A stretch of 64,000 bases of DNA from Octopus vulgaris (GCA_951406725.2 OX597835.1:50654001-50718000), one strand, 5' to 3'. Positions 32,620 to 56,869 are shown, numbered from the stretch's first letter. Made by a program: numbers and translations. Notes: generated by a model not told the origin, from the sequence alone.

Positions 32620-33512
32620 GGGGTGTATGGAGTGTACGGGAGGATTAGTACATCTGATGGGGCAACAGTCATGCTCCTCCTAGGAATAGTTGATCTGCCT
32701 TGGACCCCACCTGCACTCAGCTCTCACTTGTGGCTCCTAGTAGCTATTCGTATGCAACAACAGCCACATCCTAAGCAACGGCTTCGACTAGCCAGCAAAA
32801 CCAAGTGAGGGTAGCCAACTGGTCTTAAACCTTCGGCGAGTTAGGGCTTGCCTACCTACACATATGAAGACTGGAGCCAACTTATTCTGCAGAAGAAACC
32901 ACCAGAACGGTTTCAACGGAGAAGAGGGCAGTTACAGCAGGGCACTGTGGAGTGCATAGGGCAAGATGAGGCACTATAGGACATCTTGGTCATTCACTGC
33001 ATCCAGTTCTGTCCCCAGTCGTCTCAATCTGGTCTTGCCACTGGTTAAGACGGTCTCGGACAAGAAAGTGAGGTCAGGGATGTGCAACCCTTCCTCACTT
33101 TAAACAAAGTTTCCTCGTGCAAGTCATCTTTCATCCTTCTTTCCACCCCTTCATCCCAAAGTCCTGTGGTGACAGGCACATAACGAAGTGACAGGTGTGG
33201 GTACACTGGAAATCATAGCCGCAAACCTGCACACAGGTGGCTCAGGCCACAGGGTCGCTATTCACTGACCTGGAGCAGCAGTAGATTTTGGCAGCCGTCT
33301 GGGCGACTGAGCAGTCCTATTTAGGCAGAGGACTGCAGACAAGCCAGGAAGAACAGAGCTAACAACCCTGTAGCAGGCACTACCATTCCCTGTCCATACT
33401 GTCAAAGACTCTTTCAGGCACAGATTGGCCTCACTAGCCATCTGCAGACTCACAAAACAAGCCCACTCCAGGATGACTAGATGGTCTTTGTCGCATCAAC
33501 AGACAAACTACA
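32620..33512 (+). mobile_element. Internally deleted RTE/BovB-like element (5' UTR joined to ORF C-terminus)
   Basis: GC-richer non-coding 5' block joined to FPCPYCQRLFQAQIGLTSHLQTH (about 33385-33455), the C2H2 terminus typical of RTE-BovB ORFs, followed by a short 3' UTR. Confidence 0.6.
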
Positions 33513-33859: not shown

Positions 33860-34385
33860 CATCGCAGAAGTTCTGAAAGTGTAGTTGCTAGAATAAGAAC
33901 GGGCTGGGCAAAGTTCAGAGAACTTCTTTCTTTGTTGGTAACTAAGGGCCTATCCCTCAAAGTGAAAGGCAGATTGCATGATGCCTGTGTATGTGGGACA
34001 AAGTGGTGAGAAAGGATCTTCAGGCACTGGGCTTCACCATGGAAGTGACAAGGGACCAGGAGATGGTGATTTGCTGTACTTGATATACTGTATCAAGCCA
34101 AGTAAAATCGCTGTCTTCCGTACATACAGGCTGGTCTTTTCAGGTGCTGGTACCACTCAAAAAGCAGCCATGCTGGTGCTGCATAAACACACCCATGCCA
34201 ATGACACAAAAGAAGCACCTAACATACTCTATTAGGTGGTTGGCATTAGGAAGAACATTTAGCCATAGAAACCAAGCCACGACAGACACTTGGAGTGTGG
34301 ATAGCTCCCTGCTAGCCAGCTCCGGGCAAACTGTCCAACCCATAACAGCATGGAAACCGGACATTAAACAATGATAATGACGACG
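33860..34385 (+). mobile_element. RTE RT fragment and 3' tail
   Basis: SESVVARIRTGWAKFRELLSLLVTKGLSLKVKGRLHDACV, followed by the conserved tail. Confidence 0.75.
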
Positions 34386-35242
34386 TATATGTGTGTGCAT
34401 CCTTGTGTCTGTCCCCTATTTGGTCTGTTTCATATTCATACTGGCCATATCTGACTTCTCACACCCAACCCACAATGTCATTCTGAAAATAAACAATCAC
34501 ATCATCTAAATCTCAAAATCTACAAGATAATGAATGATTAATTCAAAACAATGTGAATAAAAAAACATATTAGAGTAATCTGAATGCTAAAGAGGTTAGC
34601 TAAAAATAGTTTTCTAAATTAAGGAGTACATTTTTTTCCCATGATGGAACATTTTCCACCTACCCACCCTGACCTCACAACCACTATGACCACAAAAGTA
34701 AGCAAAAGTTCAAATACACATTGAAACAAACAGTTAAACTTAGAATTTTACAAGAACATCTCAGGTGCAGGTAAAGCTAGGTGGTTAAGAAATTCCTTTT
34801 GCAGCTTTGCTTCTAATGCACCCGAGGGCCACCTTGGTTAAGTCTTTTCTGCTATAAACTCGAGACTGCCCAATACCTTGTGAGTGACATTCATACAAAC
34901 TGTGTGGAAGCTGTGTGTGTGTGTGTGCGTGCACATGTAACTATAAATCAATTCCTCTCATGTTAGAAAACTACTATTTTTAAATCTCACAACATGAGAT
35001 ATTCAGCAACAGTACTTTGTAGTAAAGATTGTTTGCCAACATAACATGGCAATCCTAATTTAAGACAAATGTTGCTGTAATTTAACCGCAGGAGACATCA
35101 TCTCCAGTTGGCTATTTAACACGATCTGTGTCCTTATATTTTCAAACAAGGGAATTTCTTAATAAATTAGTGAGTAGTTGTCACTTTGAAAACTATATAT
35201 TTCAAACAGGAATTTGGCAGCACCACCTCTAGCCGAACAATT

Positions 35243-38200
35243 TTTCCTCAGTTACGCGTCATTATTTTCATTTGCTACCCAATCGTTACATGAGTTCGTT
35301 TCTGTTTGTGTTTTTATTGTTATTGTGTGTTACTGTACATTTATTTGAACTGCTGTCTTTTGATAAACAGTAATTTTCACCCTATGGGGCAGAAAATTTC
35401 TGATATTTTTGTGAACTGTTATTTTTGAAAATTTTGGTGACAAGTTTTTCTTGTCATTTGCAACAAGTATGGATTTTGACCTCACATCCAATATGGATTT
35501 TCCAGAGATGGGAGAAGTTAAAAATAACAACAAAAAACCAAAGGATAACCAGGAAAAACGAAGTTTTTCAGCCACCATAGGTGGTAATGTCACTGAACTG
35601 GAAGTAGCCATGGACAAGCTCTTCCAGTTCAGAAAATTAATTTTTAAAAAACAGAGAAGAAACTAAGGTGATACCACCCCCTGAAACTGTTCAGGCAATT
35701 CAAGAAAAAACTGTTGTTTATAAAATTTGCAGTATAAAGGATAAAAGAATTACTGAAGTAAAAAATGAAGTCATTGAATGATGTATGGCACCAATATGGA
35801 ACAAGATTTGCTACGTTAACCGAGGTGTAAGAAGTACTACAATAGAAGCACATTTCGAGTCAGCTAACGTAGCAAAAGAAATTTCGACTCAAACACTGAA
35901 GTGTGAGGAGATTATGTTGCTGCCTATGTATTTGGGTCATCAAACGACAAAAGCAATGGTTGAGGAGATACCTGTTGGTTACGAAGTCATGTAATATTTG
36001 ACATCGAAGGGAAATTAACAATCCTGAAATGGTGATACAAGCAGATAACTCAACATTAGAAAATTTGCCAGATAGAGTCTTTGTGGGGGAGGGGCATACA
36101 ATTCGTGTATCGATGGAGGGACATAGGTCCAGGTGTTTTAAGTGCGGGCAAAAGGGCCACGTTCGCTCTACCTGCACAAAGAAAAGAGCAGTCGAGGTTC
36201 CTCCCCAAACCATGGAGAAAAACACAGAGAAAAAGAAACAGGAAAACACAGCACTAACAAAAGAAAATAACAAAAACAACAAAATGAAAAACAGAATGAA
36301 AAACAAAAGGAAGAAGAAAAAAACAAACAAAAGAAAATGAACAAGAAGATATGGAATACACAGCAGTTACCTACAAATGGAAAAAAGATAGCACCCCCAG
36401 ACTCCCCTCCCCAAACAAAAAGGAAAACTACAAACACCAACGAACAATGACAAAAAATTTTCCAATCCTACCCCCCGCCAGTGCTACGTTGATAGGACAG
36501 GCCAGTGTTTCAACATAGCCCACCCACCCTAACACTAAAAGGCTTTAAAAAACAGACAGGATTGTTGCTTTCAATGTTAAAAATGAGAGGGTTTTATGCT
36601 TGATTAAAGCACACCCACACATTAAATTTTTTAAGGTGACAGACAAAGAGTCTGACATTCATTATGCCAAAGTCAGAGGGGAGGAGTGGAAAGGAAAACT
36701 GCTCTAAGAACATGTTAAAGACAATTTAATCAAAGATGTCACCCAGGAGGTGATAGCCGGGAAGCTAGTTATCAGCCTGGCAGCCATTCTAACAGGTGAA
36801 AAGCCCAGCAACTACGGAAAGTTTTGGGGAAGCAGGCAGACAAAAACTTGCCATGTCCCCTTTTACAAATTTGTTTTCTTTCTTCAATGATTAAGTTAGG
36901 TTGTTTAAATGTGCATGGAATGGGGTTGAGATGGAAACAGGCTTGTTTCCTGAACGACCTCATGACACATAGAATAGATGTGGCTATTGTAACCGAGTCC
37001 AAGATGAGTGGACCTCAAGCATTCTCGTCTCTTCTGAGTGGTTACGAGAAATTTATTTCTCCTAGCCAAGGAGGGGGTGCAGGCATGGCAGTCCTTATCA
37101 GGAAGAACTTGGACTTACAGATAAGTACTGTCTTTCTGGACCCAGAAGGTAGGCTGGTTGTACTAGATGTGACATACGTGAGTACACAATCCTTCAGGTT
37201 GGTAGCTGTATACGCTTCTCAGAAGGGTATGCAGTCAGGTTTTTATCAGGAACTGGAGCACTTTCTAGTGACGTCTAAAACATTAGTTTTTTTAGGGGAC
37301 ATCAACACTATCCTCGAAGCGCAGGTCAATAGTGTGGGCTCAACTGATAGGAAAGGGAATCCTTGCCTCAAATGTCTACTACAGAGCTATAATCTAGTAG
37401 ACCATTACTGACTGGATGAGCCAAGCGTTCCAAAGTGGACATGGAGTAACAATGACGGCTCACGCAGATCGTAACTAGATAGGGTATTTATTAAAGAAAG
37501 AGATAGTGTTAGTTGTCTACAATTTTGTATTGTGCCTTACACAGATCACAAACTTGTGACGTGTGAGGTACACGTAGATAAATGTCATAGACAGAGACCC
37601 GGGTATTGGAAAATGAACAAGTCCATTTTGACTTGTGAAGCTTTCTGTACCCGGATTAAGGTGTTAGTTCAGAGGGCATTATGTGGCACCATCATTAACA
37701 ATAGATGGTGGCACACCCACAAAAGAGCCATCCGTTTGGCGTCCATTAGATTTAGCAAGCAGCTGGGTTTAGATAGGACTAGAACAGAGGGCGATTTAGT
37801 TAAGAACTTAGATGAGGCAATGGAATCTGGCTCTGCATCTAGAGTGTTGGCAGCGAGAACAGTCTTGTACCGTCACCTCAATGCCAAGCATGAAGATTGC
37901 AGAGTCAGAGCTAAGCTACATGCAGGGAAACGAGAAGGTATTAATGTTGCTGGATGGGCTCGTCGTGAGGAGAATCAGAGAAGTAAAAAGTCCTCTATAA
38001 AGTCTTTAACGGATGAACAGGGGCGCAAGATCTATGGAGAGGAGAAGATGCAGAAAGTCTTTCACCAGCATTTCACTCGGTTGTTCAGGGAAAGTGGTCC
38101 GCTTGAGCGGGGAGAGACCTTAAAGGACTTCCTAACTGGTGGACCGCGACTCTTGGCACGTGAGGCTGAATGCTGTGAAGGACCAATCACTCCCGCAGAG

Positions 38201-40480
38201 GTAAGAGAGGTGTTGGCTGAGTGTGCCAGGGAAAAGTCGCTGGGGTTAGATGGTTTGCTCTATGAGTTTTATCGTTGTATGCCGGACTTGTTCAGGGATA
38301 TACTGGCAGGTGTCTATGCAAACTGGCAACAGAATGGGAGGATTCCCAGTTCTGTGAGCCAGGGAGTTGTGACACTGGTCCAGAAAGACCTGAGCAAGTG
38401 GGGTAGTATCTGTAATTATAGGCCCATAACTCTACTTAATGTAGAGTTAAAGATTTTGGCGAAGGTGTTAGCAAAAAGGTTGACGGCTGTCATGGAGAAA
38501 ATTGTTGGAAAGGCGCAGACATGTACAATCCCAGGCAGGTTGATCTATGATAATCTTCACCTTCTCCACTACACCTTCGATAGGGTTGGGAAATTAGCCG
38601 TCAAAGGAGGAGCATTGGGCCATTTAGACCAAAGTAAAGTGTTCAATAGGGTAGACCATTGATACCTGGCGGCAGTCCTCGAAGCGGCTGGGCTGGGCCC
38701 TGGCTTTCATGGGTGGATCTCCGCTATGTACAGCGACATCAAGTCCACAGTCCAGATAAACGGCTACCTAACGGAGCCGTTTTCAATCAAGCATTCTGTT
38801 CATCAAGGGTGTCCCTTGTCTCCGCTTCTGTACGTTTTGGCTCTTAAGCCATTGCTGCAGAAGTTGGAGAAGTTTGGAGGCAACTCAAATGAAATCGGAT
38901 GCAGTAAGTCTGTTTCTGCTTATGCGAATGGTGTCATCCTCATCATGTCCAACAAAGCACAACTACCTCATGTAGAAGATGCTCTCCAAGGATACAAAGC
39001 ATTGGCAGGGGCAAAAGTTAACAATGACAAGTCCATCGGTTTGCGCCTCGGCACCTAGAGGAACAAGCCAATATCATCCAGTGTCGTTGGACACTGGACA
39101 GATGGTCCTGTTAAGTTGCTTGAGTTTGGTTTGGTTCAGACTCCCAGACAGAAATTTGAAGCAAGGTAGTGGACAAGGTGAAGGCAATAGAACGGAAGTG
39201 GTCTGGAAGGCCCCTGTCCTTGAAGGGCAGGGCAGAGGTGGTGCAGGTGTTCATAGCATCTGTAACCACCTACCACCTGTCCATTGTGCCTTGCCCCGAT
39301 TTGTGGCTAAACAAGTTGGAATGACTCCTCTTCCACTTTTTGTGAAGGGAGGAAAGCCACTTGTGAGGCACTCTGTTTGCTGCCAGGAACCATTAAAGGG
39401 TGGACTGGGAATGCCCTGGCTAATGCGCAGACATGCATTGAGGCTGAGACATCTCTGGTCCCACCTGGAGAGTGATAAGGTGTGAGTCTGCTAGCGGAGG
39501 AGTTCTTGCCACGATCAGCCTCTTTGGAGAGATTTAAACCCGGTTTCATTAAAAAACGTAATCTGACTTTATGGCAGAAGGAGTGCCATCTAGCACTCTG
39601 GCTGATCCACAAGACAGGCAAGGCCGGCAGTGGGAATACCACCTCAGTGTTCTATAGAGGGCTGGTAGAGGCAAAAAGCGATGACGTCCTAGGAGGGGCT
39701 CTGGGGTTCAATGAGAACCAACTTGCCAACCTGTTCAAAAGAACTTTCAGGCCAGGGTACTTGGACAACTAAAAATCCCTGACCTGGCAGTGCTACAGGA
39801 ATGCATTACCTGTTTGTGATAAGTTATCCAAGCACGGTTTGTCAGTGCCACTGACATGTCCAAGATGTGGACTGGACGTTGAAACCGTTCAGCACGCTTT
39901 TATCGGGAGCTATCTAGCTTCATAAGTTATGTCGAACACATGTTGTCGCATCTGGGACGAGTACAGCTGTCAACTGGATCTATAATAAAGATGATACCGC
40001 CAACTGGACCCTCAAGGAAGGTAAGGCTTGTTTTTACTGTACAGTTGCAGTACTGAAAGAGTGTGTTTGGAGGACTAGAATGGAAGGTTTTGTGACAGGG
40101 TCCTTCGTCTCTGGTCCTGGTTTGCTGTGTTACTTCAGATACCATCTGAAGAGCAAGATGGGGTTCACCGAGTGAATATGAGGAACGATGGAAGGATGTG
40201 TTGAGAAAGGTGGGTGTCAGTAACCCAGCTTAATCATCGATGAAAGGAAAAGCTAGTTGCTGGGACTTATAGGCTGCCAGCTTCAATCTTTTAAACTTTT
40301 ATTGTTTTATTTCTTTGTTTTATTTTTAAAAAAAGTTCTAGTTAAAGGTAAAAAATTAGTTATTCATATAAAATAAATTTTTAACATAATGCTCATTCGA
40401 ACTCATTTAACATTTTTGTATTTGTTTGTCTTGTAATGTCCTTTTCTATGTACGATCTTAATGATCATAATACAGATTTT
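35243..40480 (+). mobile_element. Full-length but decayed Tx1/L1-clade LINE with 18-bp TSD
   Basis: TSD acctctagcYgaacaatt at 35225-35242 and 40481-40498. ORF1 with zinc knuckle CFKCGQKGHVRSTC. ORF2 EN (LGCLNVHG, TDHKLV, PGYWKMN), RT (YRPITLLN, QGCPLSPLLY) and C-terminal CPRC..ETVQH. Multiple stops and frameshifts. Confidence 0.93.
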
Positions 40481-40500
40481 ACCTCTAGCTGAACAATTAT

Positions 40501-40545
40501 TCTGTGCTGATGAAGGGAAATAATCTGGAAATCATGATACACAGA
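40501..40545 (+). ncRNA. Minimal type I hammerhead ribozyme with intact catalytic core
   Basis: tctgtg-CTGATGA-agggaaataatctg-GAAA-tcatga-TA-cacaga: perfect 6-bp stem I, weak stem II, palindromic stem III ATCATGAT, predicted cleavage after A40539. Confidence 0.8.
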
Positions 40546-43500
40546 TATTGTTTTGAGCTGAGTGGGGGTGCTAGATTCCCTTGTTCGAAAATATAAGGAC
40601 ACAGATCATATCATATAGCCAGCTGGAGATGATGTCTCCTGGGGCTAAATTACAGCAACATTCATCGTAAACCAGGACTGCCATGTTATGTTGGCGAACA
40701 ATCTTTCCTCTCATTTTATCTTCCTCATCCCACCACCATTGCCAAGAATCACCACCCATTCTCTCTTCTATTATCTGTTAGTTACAGAAGCCACTTCAGG
40801 CTCTTAGCCTTGCAACTTATGAGGTGATCTCCATTGTTGATGCTACAAAAAGCATCTAGCATACACTGTAAAGTGGTTGTTATTAGGAATTGCAACGAGC
40901 TATGGAAACCATCCAAAGCAGATACTGACGCAGAAACACAGTCCCTTGGCTTTGTAGATCTAGTTGAACTGTCCAGCCCATAGATACATGGAAACTGGAT
41001 ATTAAATGAGACTATGAGAGTGTGTGTGTGTCTGTGCACACAACAAAACCATGAACTAGAAACCCTTAAACAATTATCACCCTTAAGAAATATAATCCCT
41101 ATAAAAGGACAATGAGGTTCAGGTACATGGTGAATATGAGACAGAATAGGGGGAAAAGGTATGTGCACTGAGTGAAAAATAGTGTGACAGGATTAGAGAG
41201 AAGAAACGAGTTGGATGCAGGAGAGAGCAGTTCAGTGTATAGGGAAGTGAAGAAAATAGGGTAACATAAAAGACTGGGTGTGAGAAGATGAGCTGCAAAA
41301 GAAGCCTCAATTCTGCTGAGATGGATGGGTCTTCTCAAGCACAGCATAAAACCATGCATCTTCATCTTCCCCCACCACCATCATCTCCCCGGAGGTTCAA
41401 ATTATATGTGTGTGTGTGTATCAACAATAATAAGGATTATTACAAAGGGACATAGTATTATTAACTGTTGTATAACCTATTCTGAATACCTAACTGACAG
41501 CAAACTGGTAAATGTTTGGAGTAAAGTAGTGTACTAAACAGAAATCCCTACAATAAGTACCATATATACAATTAAGTGCTAGATTGATATGGCTAACTTT
41601 AAAAAAAAAACTTACAAGATTGTGCTCTAGTATGGCCACTGACTCATAACTGAGGCAAGTGAAAAGGTAAGCGTTTTTGCAATTAGAAAACAAATACATA
41701 AATTTAATGGAAAAGAAATTTGGACAAAATTTGTCTTCAATTTTGTTTTTTCTATCAAGAGTTATTTTTTTATGCATCTATTTTAAGAAAAACTAAATTC
41801 TACAATTTCTAAAAGTATCTAATCACAGGAGCAGGTTCCAAACCAAAAATATATTTATAGGACTTAACATTTGGTTTGATTTTCAAAATCAATGTTGGAT
41901 AAGGTGGAGATAGGAGTAGAGATGTCAATGTGAACGTCTTCAGTAATCCTAGTACACACATAAGACTGCCTGCATTAGATATGTGTCAATGCTTGTAAGA
42001 GTGTGTGTGTGTGTGTGCTTAGAGGAGTAAGTCTGTGTGCTTACAGAAATATGTGTAAGTGAATATACGAGTGAGTGCACAAGCACCAGTGAAAGTGTGG
42101 AAGTATGTATGTGTGAGTGAGCAAGTGTGGAAGTGTGTGTGTGTGCACACGCATATGAATGAGCATGAGTGTGTGTGTGTACATATAAATGAGGGTGTGT
42201 GAGTGAGAGTATGTTAACAAGTGAGAGTGCGTGAATGTGTGCATTTTCAGTAAATCAACTCCAAGCTGACAAACCCAGTTAGGAAACTGATAACTTTGGC
42301 CTTAAACAGAGTCAGTTAGTTTTCTCAAATGTAGTTCAATGCATAAATTACACTTTAGGGTGAGTAGCAGAAGGAGGTGGGATGGAAGGAGATTGAAATA
42401 TCAAAAAGTTCTGGATTATAGAATATTCAGGTCATACAAATATTTTCTCTAAATTCCAAGAGTCTGAGATAGTGCACAGCCTTTGGTCATTGGATTCCCA
42501 GACCATTGTAGACTATGGTTGGTGGATGGTATAATTGGTAGAGCATTGGATAAAATATCTTTTAGCATTTGGTTATGCCTATTTATGTTCAATTCCCAGA
42601 GTTCAATTCCCAATCAAGTTCACTTTACTGTTTACTCTTCCAAAATAAAGACTGTGACCAATCACTAACCAGTAATTTAGTCATCTAAATGCTTAGGAGA
42701 AATGTATACAAGTTTTAATAAACCCATTTTAATCTCACACATTCCCACCTAACACAAGCGTCTCTTGATAGAAACCCATTCAGGCAATGATTAGGACATC
42801 AACCAGCCAGTAAGATACTTTGCAATTTACTTGTTAATACTTCAGAAAGTTATAGAGTGTTTACACTTTGATGCGAGTCTATATCTAGCACTTGACAATG
42901 AGGAATAAAAAATTATGGAAGATAAACTAGGAATCATCTTAAATGTGCAACAACAAATATTACATTGGTACAGGCATGTGATGGATGGGAAACATAACGA
43001 GTAAGTGAAGAAACATCCAAGGGGAGGGAAACTGGAAGAGAAAGACCAAGACCAAAGAAATAGTAGAAGCTGATCTCAGGATCTTTTACTTGTTTTAGTC
43101 ATCAGACCTCAGCCATGCTGGGGCACCACCTTGACAAATTTTTAGTTGAATGACTCAAACACAGTACTTTATTTTTTTTTTTTAAAGCCTAGTACTTATA
43201 TTTTTTGCTGAACTGCTAAGGGGACACAAACACACCAACACCAGTTGTCAAACAGTGGTGGGAGGACAAATACACACACACAGAAGCTTCTTTCAGTTTC
43301 TGTCTACCAAATCCATTCAAAAGCTTTGGCCAGCCTGAGGCTATAGTAGAAGACACCCAAGATGCCATGCAATGGTATTGAACTCAGAACCATGTGACTG
43401 AAAAGCAAGCTGCTTACCACACAGCCATGCCTGTCCATAAAATATGATAATATCTGAATTAAGAAAATAATAATATACTAGGAATGTTATTGCTGGATGC

Positions 43501-55175: not shown

Positions 55176-56869
55176 ATGTGCGTGTGTGTGCATGTGCGTG
55201 TGTGCGTGCGCACGTATCCTTTTTCTGGTATTACATGATGGTTCTAAATGAACATTAGTCATACAAGTGATGTTCATTTCCAATCTTCTGTGAAAAACAT
55301 GTCTAGCCATGGAGAAATATTAGCTTGCTTGGAAACAGATGAGAAATGACATCATGATGGGCAGCCACCACTTATATGGATGACAAATACAATCCTTTTT
55401 TCATGGTAGAGGTGAGAGTGCAGGACAAAAAGGGTTGAGACACACAGACAGAGTGTGTCTAAGGCCAAAGTCACAAAATACTTCGGTGCATCTGGTAATA
55501 AAATAGATACTAGAGTTGTACCACTGTTGTAACTAGTGGGAGTACTATAAATTGACAAGTGTTTTCTTTATTTGCATGTATGTGGCTGAGTGGTTAGGGC
55601 TGTTGGACTCACAACTGTAAGGCTGAGGGGTTGGATTGATTCCTTGAGTAATGTAATTCATTTCATATTGCTGAAAATGAGTGTATGTGCAGCTGAGTAG
55701 GCTTCACAAGCTGCTAGCCCAAAATCTACCTTGTAAATGCAAAATCTCAACAACCCTTGATGGCCACAGGTAAACAATATGATGGCAATAACAGTGGTGG
55801 TGGTGATGATGAAAAGGAGAGCTTGCAGTGTTTAAATTCTGTTCCTCCTACAAGTTTAAATTAGGAGGAACAGACTTAAAGGCCAAAGCTGATTTGCTCC
55901 AGATATGCCATAAATAGAGGAAGTGGTACCATTTTAATCCAAAGAATGATAAGACTCACCATAGTCACTAATGAGGAGGAGAATGTTTGGTTCTGTAACA
56001 CAAATTCACAAACAATATAGGTCATAGATTATAGTATTAAGTGATGTGTAACAGTGATAAGACTCTTGGCTGCTCATGGTGGAAACATTTTTCATTTTCA
56101 TAATCACAGACAGAGTTCCTAAAAATGTATATGTCACCTAAAAAAATGTGTATTTTTTAATTATTATTCTTTTTTCCTCCCCCTCAAAAAAGTTATTTGG
56201 CTGCTTGAGTTAACATGAAATGCCACATCAAAGAAAGTGTTAAGAGCTGATTTGTTAGGTATAAAATTATTATCAGAGGTATACAGGAGATACCATCACC
56301 ACTATTATAAACAGCACTATCACACACTTCATTTATCAAACACATACGCATAATATTGGCATCTCCTCTGGATGTGTGCATATACACACACACGTCTGTG
56401 TGTATATAGACATATGTGTGTGTATATAGACACTTTGTCTGTGTGAGTGTGTGTGTGTGTGTGTGGGTATGGATATAAGATGAAACCTTAAATGCAAAAC
56501 AACCGCCAAAAGTGAAAAGAATAAAAAGTCATAATAATAATCACTGTGGTGATGATCATTACTTGATCTATTTCCTCTGAGAGTGGACGCAACAGTTTTT
56601 GATTGTGACTATTGATTGTCTCAGATCAGACACTGCTAGTCCTGCTGGAATTCAACCACACACACACACACACACAACCACCACTCTTTCTGCTACAAAA
56701 CATTAATAGTTATCGCCAAGCTAATATGGCAGTCCATAGATATAAGACTAAAGCTGCCATTGATTAGCTCCAAGAGGCCATCACCTCTAGCTAGCTATAT
56801 GACACGAACCTGTGTCCATTATAACCTTCGAACAGGGGAGGTCAGCCACTTCCCCTTGCTGGTCAGGCA

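Follow-up and report, generated by a model that had tools for sequence, protein, structure and literature searches.

Long interspersed nuclear elements (LINEs) of the Tx1 clade include target-specific members, Keno among them, that are described from U2, U5, 5S, microsatellite and DNA transposon targets (PMC4494074, PMC4640811). Known target-specific LINEs mostly read one conserved sequence, and targeting by position relative to a start site is established for genes transcribed by RNA polymerase III (Pol III). The long terminal repeat (LTR) elements Ty3 and Tj1 and the non-LTR elements TRE5 and NLTR-A, of the L1 clade, target Pol III start regions via TFIIIB, inserting upstream of the gene by 1-10 bp (Ty3/Tj1), 2-6 bp (NLTR-A) or, in the opposite orientation, 40-54 bp (TRE5) (PMC5911963). 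Here we describe a full-length but decayed Tx1-like LINE of Octopus vulgaris and its family. The element lies in a window of 64,000 nucleotides (GCA_951406725.2 OX597835.1:50654001-50718000), where it is inserted into a retrozyme unit and ends 20 nt before a type I hammerhead motif. Other copies sit at the first base (+1) of U1 and U2 small nuclear RNA (snRNA) genes with the same geometry, and the lineage is probably guided to transcription start sites.

The host units match the layout of metazoan non-LTR retrozymes (PMC7229834; bioRxiv 10.64898/2026.07.22.740005) and the Penelope insertion layout, including an inverted 5'-truncated copy (PMC8557442). The start site of Penelope has been located in its pseudo-LTR (pLTR) (PMC7229834, PMC4209133, PMC8557442, bioRxiv 10.64898/2026.07.22.740005), and a short palindromic stem III with dimer-dependent cleavage is typical of such hammerheads (PMC4209133). 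In crocodilians, Tx1-Mar and the short interspersed nuclear element (SINE) family SINEU repeatedly acquired U1/U2-derived 5' heads, for which transcription from a flanking promoter has been suggested (PMC4494074). L1-Tx1 and Penelope families figure in a recent repeat annotation of octopus, whose main text contains none of the words 'hammerhead', 'ribozyme' and 'snRNA' (PMC13282606). Our full-text literature search, outside which lay subscription papers, Kojima and Fujiwara 2004, Repbase and supplements including the target figures of PMC4494074, returned no Tx1 family at an snRNA +1 or in retrozymes and no proximal sequence element (PSE) in animal retrozymes.

Insertions at one position of retrozymes and at the first base of U1 and U2 genes

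Family 3' ends were collected from the 2.8-Gb genome with patterns for the last 19 bases, without using the flank. The first pattern gave 56 matches (reverse control, 1) and a second gave 110 (control, 8; 100 among the matches listed). We fetched 100 regions, comprising all 56, 41 of the 47 further listed ends and 5 picked from another search; 4 copies of the C12 cluster and 2 of the C20 pair group were left out. The 102 junctions obtained were reduced to 91 by dropping 2 duplicates and 9 without Tx1 homology, and two of the 91 (L177 and L180, both in hammerhead hosts) come only from the hand-picked set. By homology, 38 junctions lie in hammerhead hosts, which with the window included fall into 24 groups at 80% identity; the other 53 have no such host. 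All 38 are on the ribozyme strand and at one position, with the predicted ribozyme cut at +56 to +67 in most, +1 being the first base after the Tx1 3' end. A hammerhead core starting at +11 to +45, nearly always at +25 to +33, was found without mismatch at 11/91 junctions versus 0/1638 control windows, with one mismatch at 26/91 versus 5/1638, and with two mismatches at 34/91 versus 57/1638. The share of hammerhead hosts thus lies above the 20% of flanks in one sequence type that has served to recognize target preference in Tx1-clade elements (PMC4494074). In 21 of these hosts, the window included, a target-site duplication (TSD) was confirmed around inserts of 73-5449 bp, so these are independent insertions. 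A full-length copy on another contig (L406) entered the window's host family independently and has an identical TSD. A held-out pattern gave 40 matches (control, 5), of which 30 were fetched and 20 had a Tx1 tail. These 20 ends comprised 8 with a core at +26, 1 with a core at +14, 1 host-like flank with a damaged core, 4 at U2 +1 (one already known and one a tandem) and 6 others.

Two family 5' ends held the first bases of U1, and a search with that motif gave 43 matches, of which 30 were fetched and 20 of the 30 scanned with Rfam. At L248/L393 the Tx1 3' end joins an Rfam U1 gene at position 1 of the model, and a U1-type promoter lacking about 10 bp lies upstream of the truncated Tx1 copy. 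Full-length copies occupy the +1 of Rfam-supported U2 genes in two different clusters on different contigs (L394 and L395), behind intact promoters of two different types; the order there is promoter, U2 nt 1-14 (the TSD), Tx1 and the whole U2. The snRNA survey covered U1, U2 and U6.

Large U1 and U2 gene clusters were seen at G000:C18:48.97-49.21 Mb (L243-L262) and, for U2, on C3 near 20.8 Mb and on C23 near 43.3 Mb. These clusters contain several Tx1 copies, including a tandem at U2 +1 (L418) and one with a decayed U1-like flank (L161). The U6 promoters (L264, L266, L271-L275) have ATGC(A/T)AAT near -78 and TATA at -30, without the U1/U2 ATCAGT motif.

Promoter-like motifs, cut context and 5' heads

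ATCAG or ATCAT stands at -56 to -61 in all 11 U1/U2 promoters displayed and is absent from 3/3 U6 promoters; near -30, U1 and U2 promoters have a TATA-like run. The same arrangement was seen in the hammerhead hosts. ATCAGY occurred at -66 to -55, counted from the TSD start, in 12 of the 21 TSD-confirmed hosts versus 4/315 controls, which places a PSE-like box with the U1/U2 motif near -55 to -60 as in snRNA-type promoters. TATAWA at -35 to -26 was present in 15/21 hosts versus 9/462 control windows. The latter motif was also enriched, at -30 to -33, in unrelated targets (5/21 versus 16/462, P = 0.0012, one repeat family collapsed). By analogy with the snRNA genes, animal retrozymes likely carry an internal snRNA-type promoter.

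The cut context resembles Y|AYYT, with a strong base preference at +1 to +4 and A at +1 in 83 of the 91 flanks. Motifs of this kind number 20 per host unit, yet no 3' flank begins at another sense position of the host, so the short motif alone does not fix the site. The 53 other flanks gave only two matches to the host, one antisense over 32 bp and one at +1.

Copies inserted in U2 start, after the TSD, with a stretch that matches +1 to +14 of a hammerhead host family at 13/14 bases; two copies outside U1 genes start with U1 nt 1-17, and L154 starts with the TSD of another target family. These 5' heads are TSD-sized (10-23 bp) and begin at or beside the donor's +1. Such heads are as expected if the parent copy was transcribed from the host's start site, with template switching as the alternative for single cases. 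Three RNA runs (unstranded, under another species label, with 69-75% of the placed reads running into unlike sequence) displayed no sharp start or end.

Among targets without a hammerhead, one repeat was hit five times at one base (L145, L150, L163, L130, L174), with TATAAC at -28 in the TSD-confirmed copies. Other repeats were also hit more than once at the same base (L135, L204 and L170; L212 and L427; L125 and L136), L135 and L204 facing each other as an inverted pair. Open reading frames (ORFs) were seen downstream of two insertion sites: a zinc-knuckle ORF at a distance of 532 nt (L196:7033-7668) and a C2H2 zinc-finger ORF at 410 nt (L142:7411-7968). With the former, another retroelement may begin.

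Probable guidance to transcription start sites

The bottom-strand junction falls at +1 of U1 and U2, and the retrozyme insertions match it in geometry, with sense orientation, TSDs of 10-23 bp, the same motif spacing and 5' heads. We therefore favor, as the probable explanation, a Tx1 lineage that is guided to the +1 of U1/U2 and retrozyme promoters by initiation factors or opened promoter DNA. Transcription factors bound at the promoter, or the opened DNA itself, would direct the endonuclease to nick the template strand at the start site. The exact bond would be chosen by a weak Y|AYYT preference, which would also permit off-target insertions. A second nick 10-23 bp downstream would place a full-length copy, in sense, immediately after a host promoter that stays intact; this copy would be transcribed from the host's own +1 and pass on its old TSD as a 5' head. 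It is likely, judging from sequence, that the retrozyme insertion position is the true start site, that the machinery is tethered there and that full-length copies are transcribed from the host promoter. Retrozymes would likely be the commonest target since no other carriers of such promoters (TATA about 31 bp and a U1/U2-type element about 59 bp upstream) are as numerous, and some copies would later have moved as retrozyme passengers.

Several observations weigh against this explanation. Insertions were found in only 1/30 U1 and 2/30 U2 loci and in 0/20 U6 loci, though about 7 of the latter have TATA at -30. The PSE-like motif was present in 0/24 unrelated targets, and TATAWA is missing from the tested window in 16 of 21 unrelated targets with a confirmed TSD; many insertions are therefore off-target or at another kind of promoter. 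The -35 to -26 window and the motifs were picked after inspection of the data, and at L440, the sole TSD-bearing site among the held-out unrelated ones, the TATA-like run lies at about -23. TSDs were unconfirmed at 46 of the 91 junctions, and seven hosts make up one family with non-independent copies. Every copy whose frames were checked is broken, with no intact ORF2 in 7 long copies. The analysis covers one genome, with start sites and factor binding predicted from DNA sequence. Given that a TSD could be confirmed at about half of the junctions and that TATA is lacking from most unrelated targets, the targeting is a strong preference, not a strict rule.

Alternative explanations and the role of the hammerhead

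The best of the alternatives, which we nevertheless consider unlikely, is that the ORF2 protein reads naked DNA, recognizing both the Y|AYYT cut motif and, about 30 bp upstream, a bendable TATA-like run, a layout that promoters happen to have. The strong preference at +1 to +4 fits such a mechanism, as does the TATA enrichment common to hosts and unrelated targets. Against it, an APE domain would have a long way to reach for a contact at 30 bp. U1 and U2 promoters, moreover, have only loose TATA-like runs and are still hit exactly at +1, and U6 genes with good TATA boxes escaped in the 20 loci, though U6 starts with G. In its favor, the specificity of the endonuclease is named as the chief determinant in Tx1 elements (PMC4494074).

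The preliminary description of the locus had proposed a family whose targets are repeats with a ribozyme and whose read-through RNA could be ended by the hammerhead; in a fuller version, the 3' extension would pair with the target. Repeated independent insertion into such repeats at one position is borne out by the 38 junctions on the ribozyme strand, the predicted cut lies after A40539, 59 nt beyond the LINE 3' end, as had been stated, and the element has no poly(A) tail. The hammerhead stems also covary, being 81.5% paired in 24 host copies versus 65.0% in shuffles (0/500) and 25-36% in slid controls. Two-sided changes occur in 13/14 pairs of the three stems, of which stem II is the least paired (67%). 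These copies share 51% mean column identity, and the descriptor demanded stem I pairing, so that stem I is biased toward this result. The ribozyme itself as the target was not supported: 53/91 junctions have no hammerhead host, the U1/U2 insertions have identical geometry, the hosts are diverse (the same 51% identity), and many targeted hammerheads have core mismatches (11/38 perfect). Nor was it supported that the ribozyme defines the end of the copied RNA. Host sequence runs past the predicted cut in 37/37 measurable hosts, by at least 72 nt (one more host gave no in-register match), and in every context the family stops a few bases after its own AATAAA. The hammerhead-host flanks were searched for a 3' transduction with its end at the cut, and none was found; no copy ends there. 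A ribozyme-specific family is thus very improbable, and the hammerhead is likely a bystander to targeting. It could still trim read-through RNA.

The description of the hammerhead as intact needs qualification. The type I core is perfect, and the hammerhead pattern is intact in 23/26 retrozyme units examined. In the window, the minimum-energy fold forms stem I and not the catalytic fold, and stem II is weakened: two of its pairs are G-U, against G-C in most host copies, and a purine separates it from GAAA. Rfam returned no hammerhead in the window at the gathering score or at E values up to 10; given this null result, hammerheads were called by descriptor with background counts.

Another set of routes would produce chimeras or passengers, either by a reverse transcriptase (RT) that copied a retrozyme or snRNA to its 5' end and then jumped onto Tx1 RNA, or by Penelope machinery that spread one Tx1-retrozyme copy. 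Either route joins the Tx1 3' end to the +1 of an RNA, and template switching has been proposed for the U1/U2 heads of Tx1-Mar and SINEU (PMC4494074). The inverted pair at L222, which is Penelope-like and without TSD, and the 5/7 junctions without TSD in one host family point the same way. On the other side, in 21 hosts and 2 U2 genes the variously truncated copies are preceded by the host promoter and by a duplicate of the first 10-23 nt, an arrangement that requires insertion into a DNA locus. This refutes a chimera or passenger origin for the TSD-flanked copies; it may apply to part of the 46 without TSD, and as a general account we regard it as highly improbable.

Tx1 3' parts are joined to one retrozyme family without TSD at L205, L206, L221 and L222, the last of these (C16:10.908-10.916 Mb) being the inverted pair; L222 and its kin were likely carried along by Penelope-type retrozyme mobilization. 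At G000:C12:28.51-28.60 Mb (L217, L218, L401, L402), six 5'-truncated copies have a common short host-type flank without TSD and are likely local duplications.

Chance insertion into an abundant repeat (at least 2949 first-look candidates for one family), for which the preliminary description had named unrelated flanks as the mark, has a negligible probability now that the flanks are tabulated: it is refuted by the 11/91 versus 0/1638 perfect cores, by the single position and strand, and by the independent copy at L406 with its identical TSD.

The window element and its host repeat

The features of the window are collected in Table 1. As previously described, the LINE has an 18-bp TSD (the two copies 17/18 identical) that ends 2 nt before stem I, and it lacks a poly(A) tail: its 3' end is AATACAGATTTT, and that of the family is AATAAAGATTT(T/C). 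The APE endonuclease lies N-terminal to the RT in ORF2, relatives also having zf-RVT, and compared with the relative P0003 the coding sequence is interrupted by 6 stops and changes frame several times. The 5' junction is covered, with 1-2 differences, by contigs of three public runs, so it is no assembly artefact.

Table 1 Features of the window related to the Tx1-like LINE and its host repeat
Feature	Position	Strand	Remarks
5' inverted partial copy of 350-bp retrozyme unit	34963..35155	-	left palindrome arm; 90% identical to reversed L027 tandem unit
PSE-like box, predicted snRNA-type promoter element	35166..35173	+	at -59; here ATTAGTGA, family ATCAGTGA; putative function
TATA-like box	35194..35199	+	at -31 from TSD start; by sequence
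5' target-site duplication	35225..35242	+	first A is the predicted retrozyme transcription start (+1), on the model of the U1/U2 insertions
Full-length but decayed Tx1-like LINE	35243..40480	+	5238 bp; ends set by comparison with other copies
ORF1 remnant with CCHC zinc knuckle	36002..36340	+	PF00098, E 1e-4
ORF2 remnant: APE endonuclease, reverse transcriptase, C-terminal region	36887..40160	+	PF03372, PF00078; tblastn with P0003; stops and frameshifts
Decayed polyadenylation-like signal AATACA	40469..40474	+	AATAAA in most other family copies
3' target-site duplication	40481..40498	+	+1 to +18 of host unit
3' part of retrozyme unit	40481..40710	+	right arm 40575-40709; 93% identical to L027 unit
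Type I hammerhead motif, palindromic stem III	40501..40545	+	descriptor match, no core mismatch; predicted cut after 40539; covariation over 24 host copies

The 132-bp outer arms of a palindrome had also been noted; we found arms of 135 nt (35021-35155 and 40575-40709) that are 88% complementary. The palindrome stands, and the special fold-back element once seen in it gives way to a retrozyme unit: the pairing comes from an inverted copy at the 5' end, of Penelope type, together with the long stem of the unit itself. In the window there is one unit and its own inverted copy. Elsewhere in the genome the repeat forms head-to-tail units of 350-353 bp with an inverted partial copy at the 5' end; such a 5'-truncated copy adjoins the 5' end in the window, L005, L006, L027 and L406. 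Retrozymes consist of units 150-450 bp long in tandem that lack an ORF and contain one type I hammerhead apiece, and the host has these features; on its sequence it is a non-LTR retrozyme, that is, a Penelope-type repeat. Its abundance, given above, comes from a junction-spanning genome search, which favors the window's host and was kept out of the frequency counts. No Penelope domain (RT or GIY-YIG) was found among the 40 of 75 downstream ORFs scanned beside hosts. Back-joined RNA reads at 353 nt are compatible with circles and with tandem DNA alike.

An older fragment (73%) of the window's retrozyme family lies on the minus strand at 56715-56823. Outside the element, a 40-nt direct repeat (34329-34368 and 40967-41006, 83%) and a 25-nt inverted repeat (33477-33501 and 40835-40859, 88%) probably belong to other interspersed repeats.

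Classification and comparison with known systems

The family likely belongs to the Tx1 clade, judging from its proteins. An ORF1 with a CCHC zinc knuckle is a feature of this clade, and the window element has one (PF00098). Among named proteins, the nearest to the best relative of the element is one of Argonauta hians (68%). The RT region of the window element is 37% identical to P0003; P0003 scored 407-488 bits against metagenome elements inside U2 (Keno type) and 248.5 against human L1 ORF2p. The homologue searches returned no named Tx1 protein, and in a quick unrooted tree (48/49 rows, none of them a named Tx1 or L1) the octopod proteins and seven relatives form their own branch (99). A metagenome scan gave distant relatives only (24-41% identity), and Rfam scans of 40 of the 80 loci showed none at a +1 position. 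Several of these (L322, L324, L325, L326, L316, L318, L333, L368) lie at or inside U2 (Keno type), inside 5S rRNA or inside U1.

If guidance to start sites is correct, it constitutes a new targeting rule, by which a LINE lands on the +1 of unrelated Pol II snRNA-type and TATA promoters. It would amount to a natural knock-in, the cargo coming under the host promoter and a complete downstream gene copy being left promoterless. Retrozyme transcription becomes testable, a specific PSE, TATA and +1 being predicted, and so does the origin of the U1/U2 heads of Tx1 and SINEU as inherited TSDs rather than products of template switching. Going further, we tentatively suggest, on sequence grounds, that the LINE lands on a Pol II/SNAPc pre-initiation complex, nicks +1 with single-base precision and captures host promoters, that retrozymes are snRNA-like units with internal PSE and TATA, and that U1/U2-headed Tx1 elements and SINEs have this new origin; as a whole, this proposal is somewhat more likely to fail than to hold.

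Like metazoan non-LTR retrozymes and Penelope pLTRs, the host repeat has tandem units of about 350 bp, a type I hammerhead, a palindromic stem III and a 5' inverted partial copy. The available parts of the published work on these elements describe neither an snRNA-type PSE/TATA promoter, which the hosts here appear to have, nor Tx1 insertions, which they do have. Octopus Tx1 copies share U1-derived heads with Tx1-Mar and SINEU; the crocodilian elements, however, target Mariner-N4 and their heads are ascribed to template switching, whereas the octopus family has parent-type insertions at U1/U2 +1 and TSD-sized heads.

With Keno-type Tx1 LINEs the family shares an ORF2 with APE and RT, a zinc-knuckle ORF1, multicopy RNA-gene or transposon targets and a precise 3' junction. 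Identity with Keno was rejected, as the internal U2 site that Keno shares with Utopia is not used and the junctions fall at U2 +1. Keno-type elements (L322, L324, L326) resume inside U2 after an A-rich tail, whereas the octopus family joins U2 +1 without a tail. Unlike Keno, it hits unrelated sequences (U1, U2, many retrozymes and TATA-only sites) that share a position relative to the promoter.

In this respect Ty3, Tj1, TRE5 and NLTR-A are most likely the working analogue, since they too insert position-specifically at or near the start sites of unrelated genes. TFIIIB-type targeting of Pol III genes was not seen in the survey, which covered U6 (0/20 loci) with tRNA and 5S outside it; the targets were U1, U2 and U1/U2-like repeats. 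Tethering, shown for elements of the Ty3/TRE5 type, is here a probable counterpart suggested by sequence. In contrast to those elements, the octopus family inserts at +1 of U1/U2-type and TATA promoters, in sense orientation, with the first 10-23 transcribed bases duplicated.

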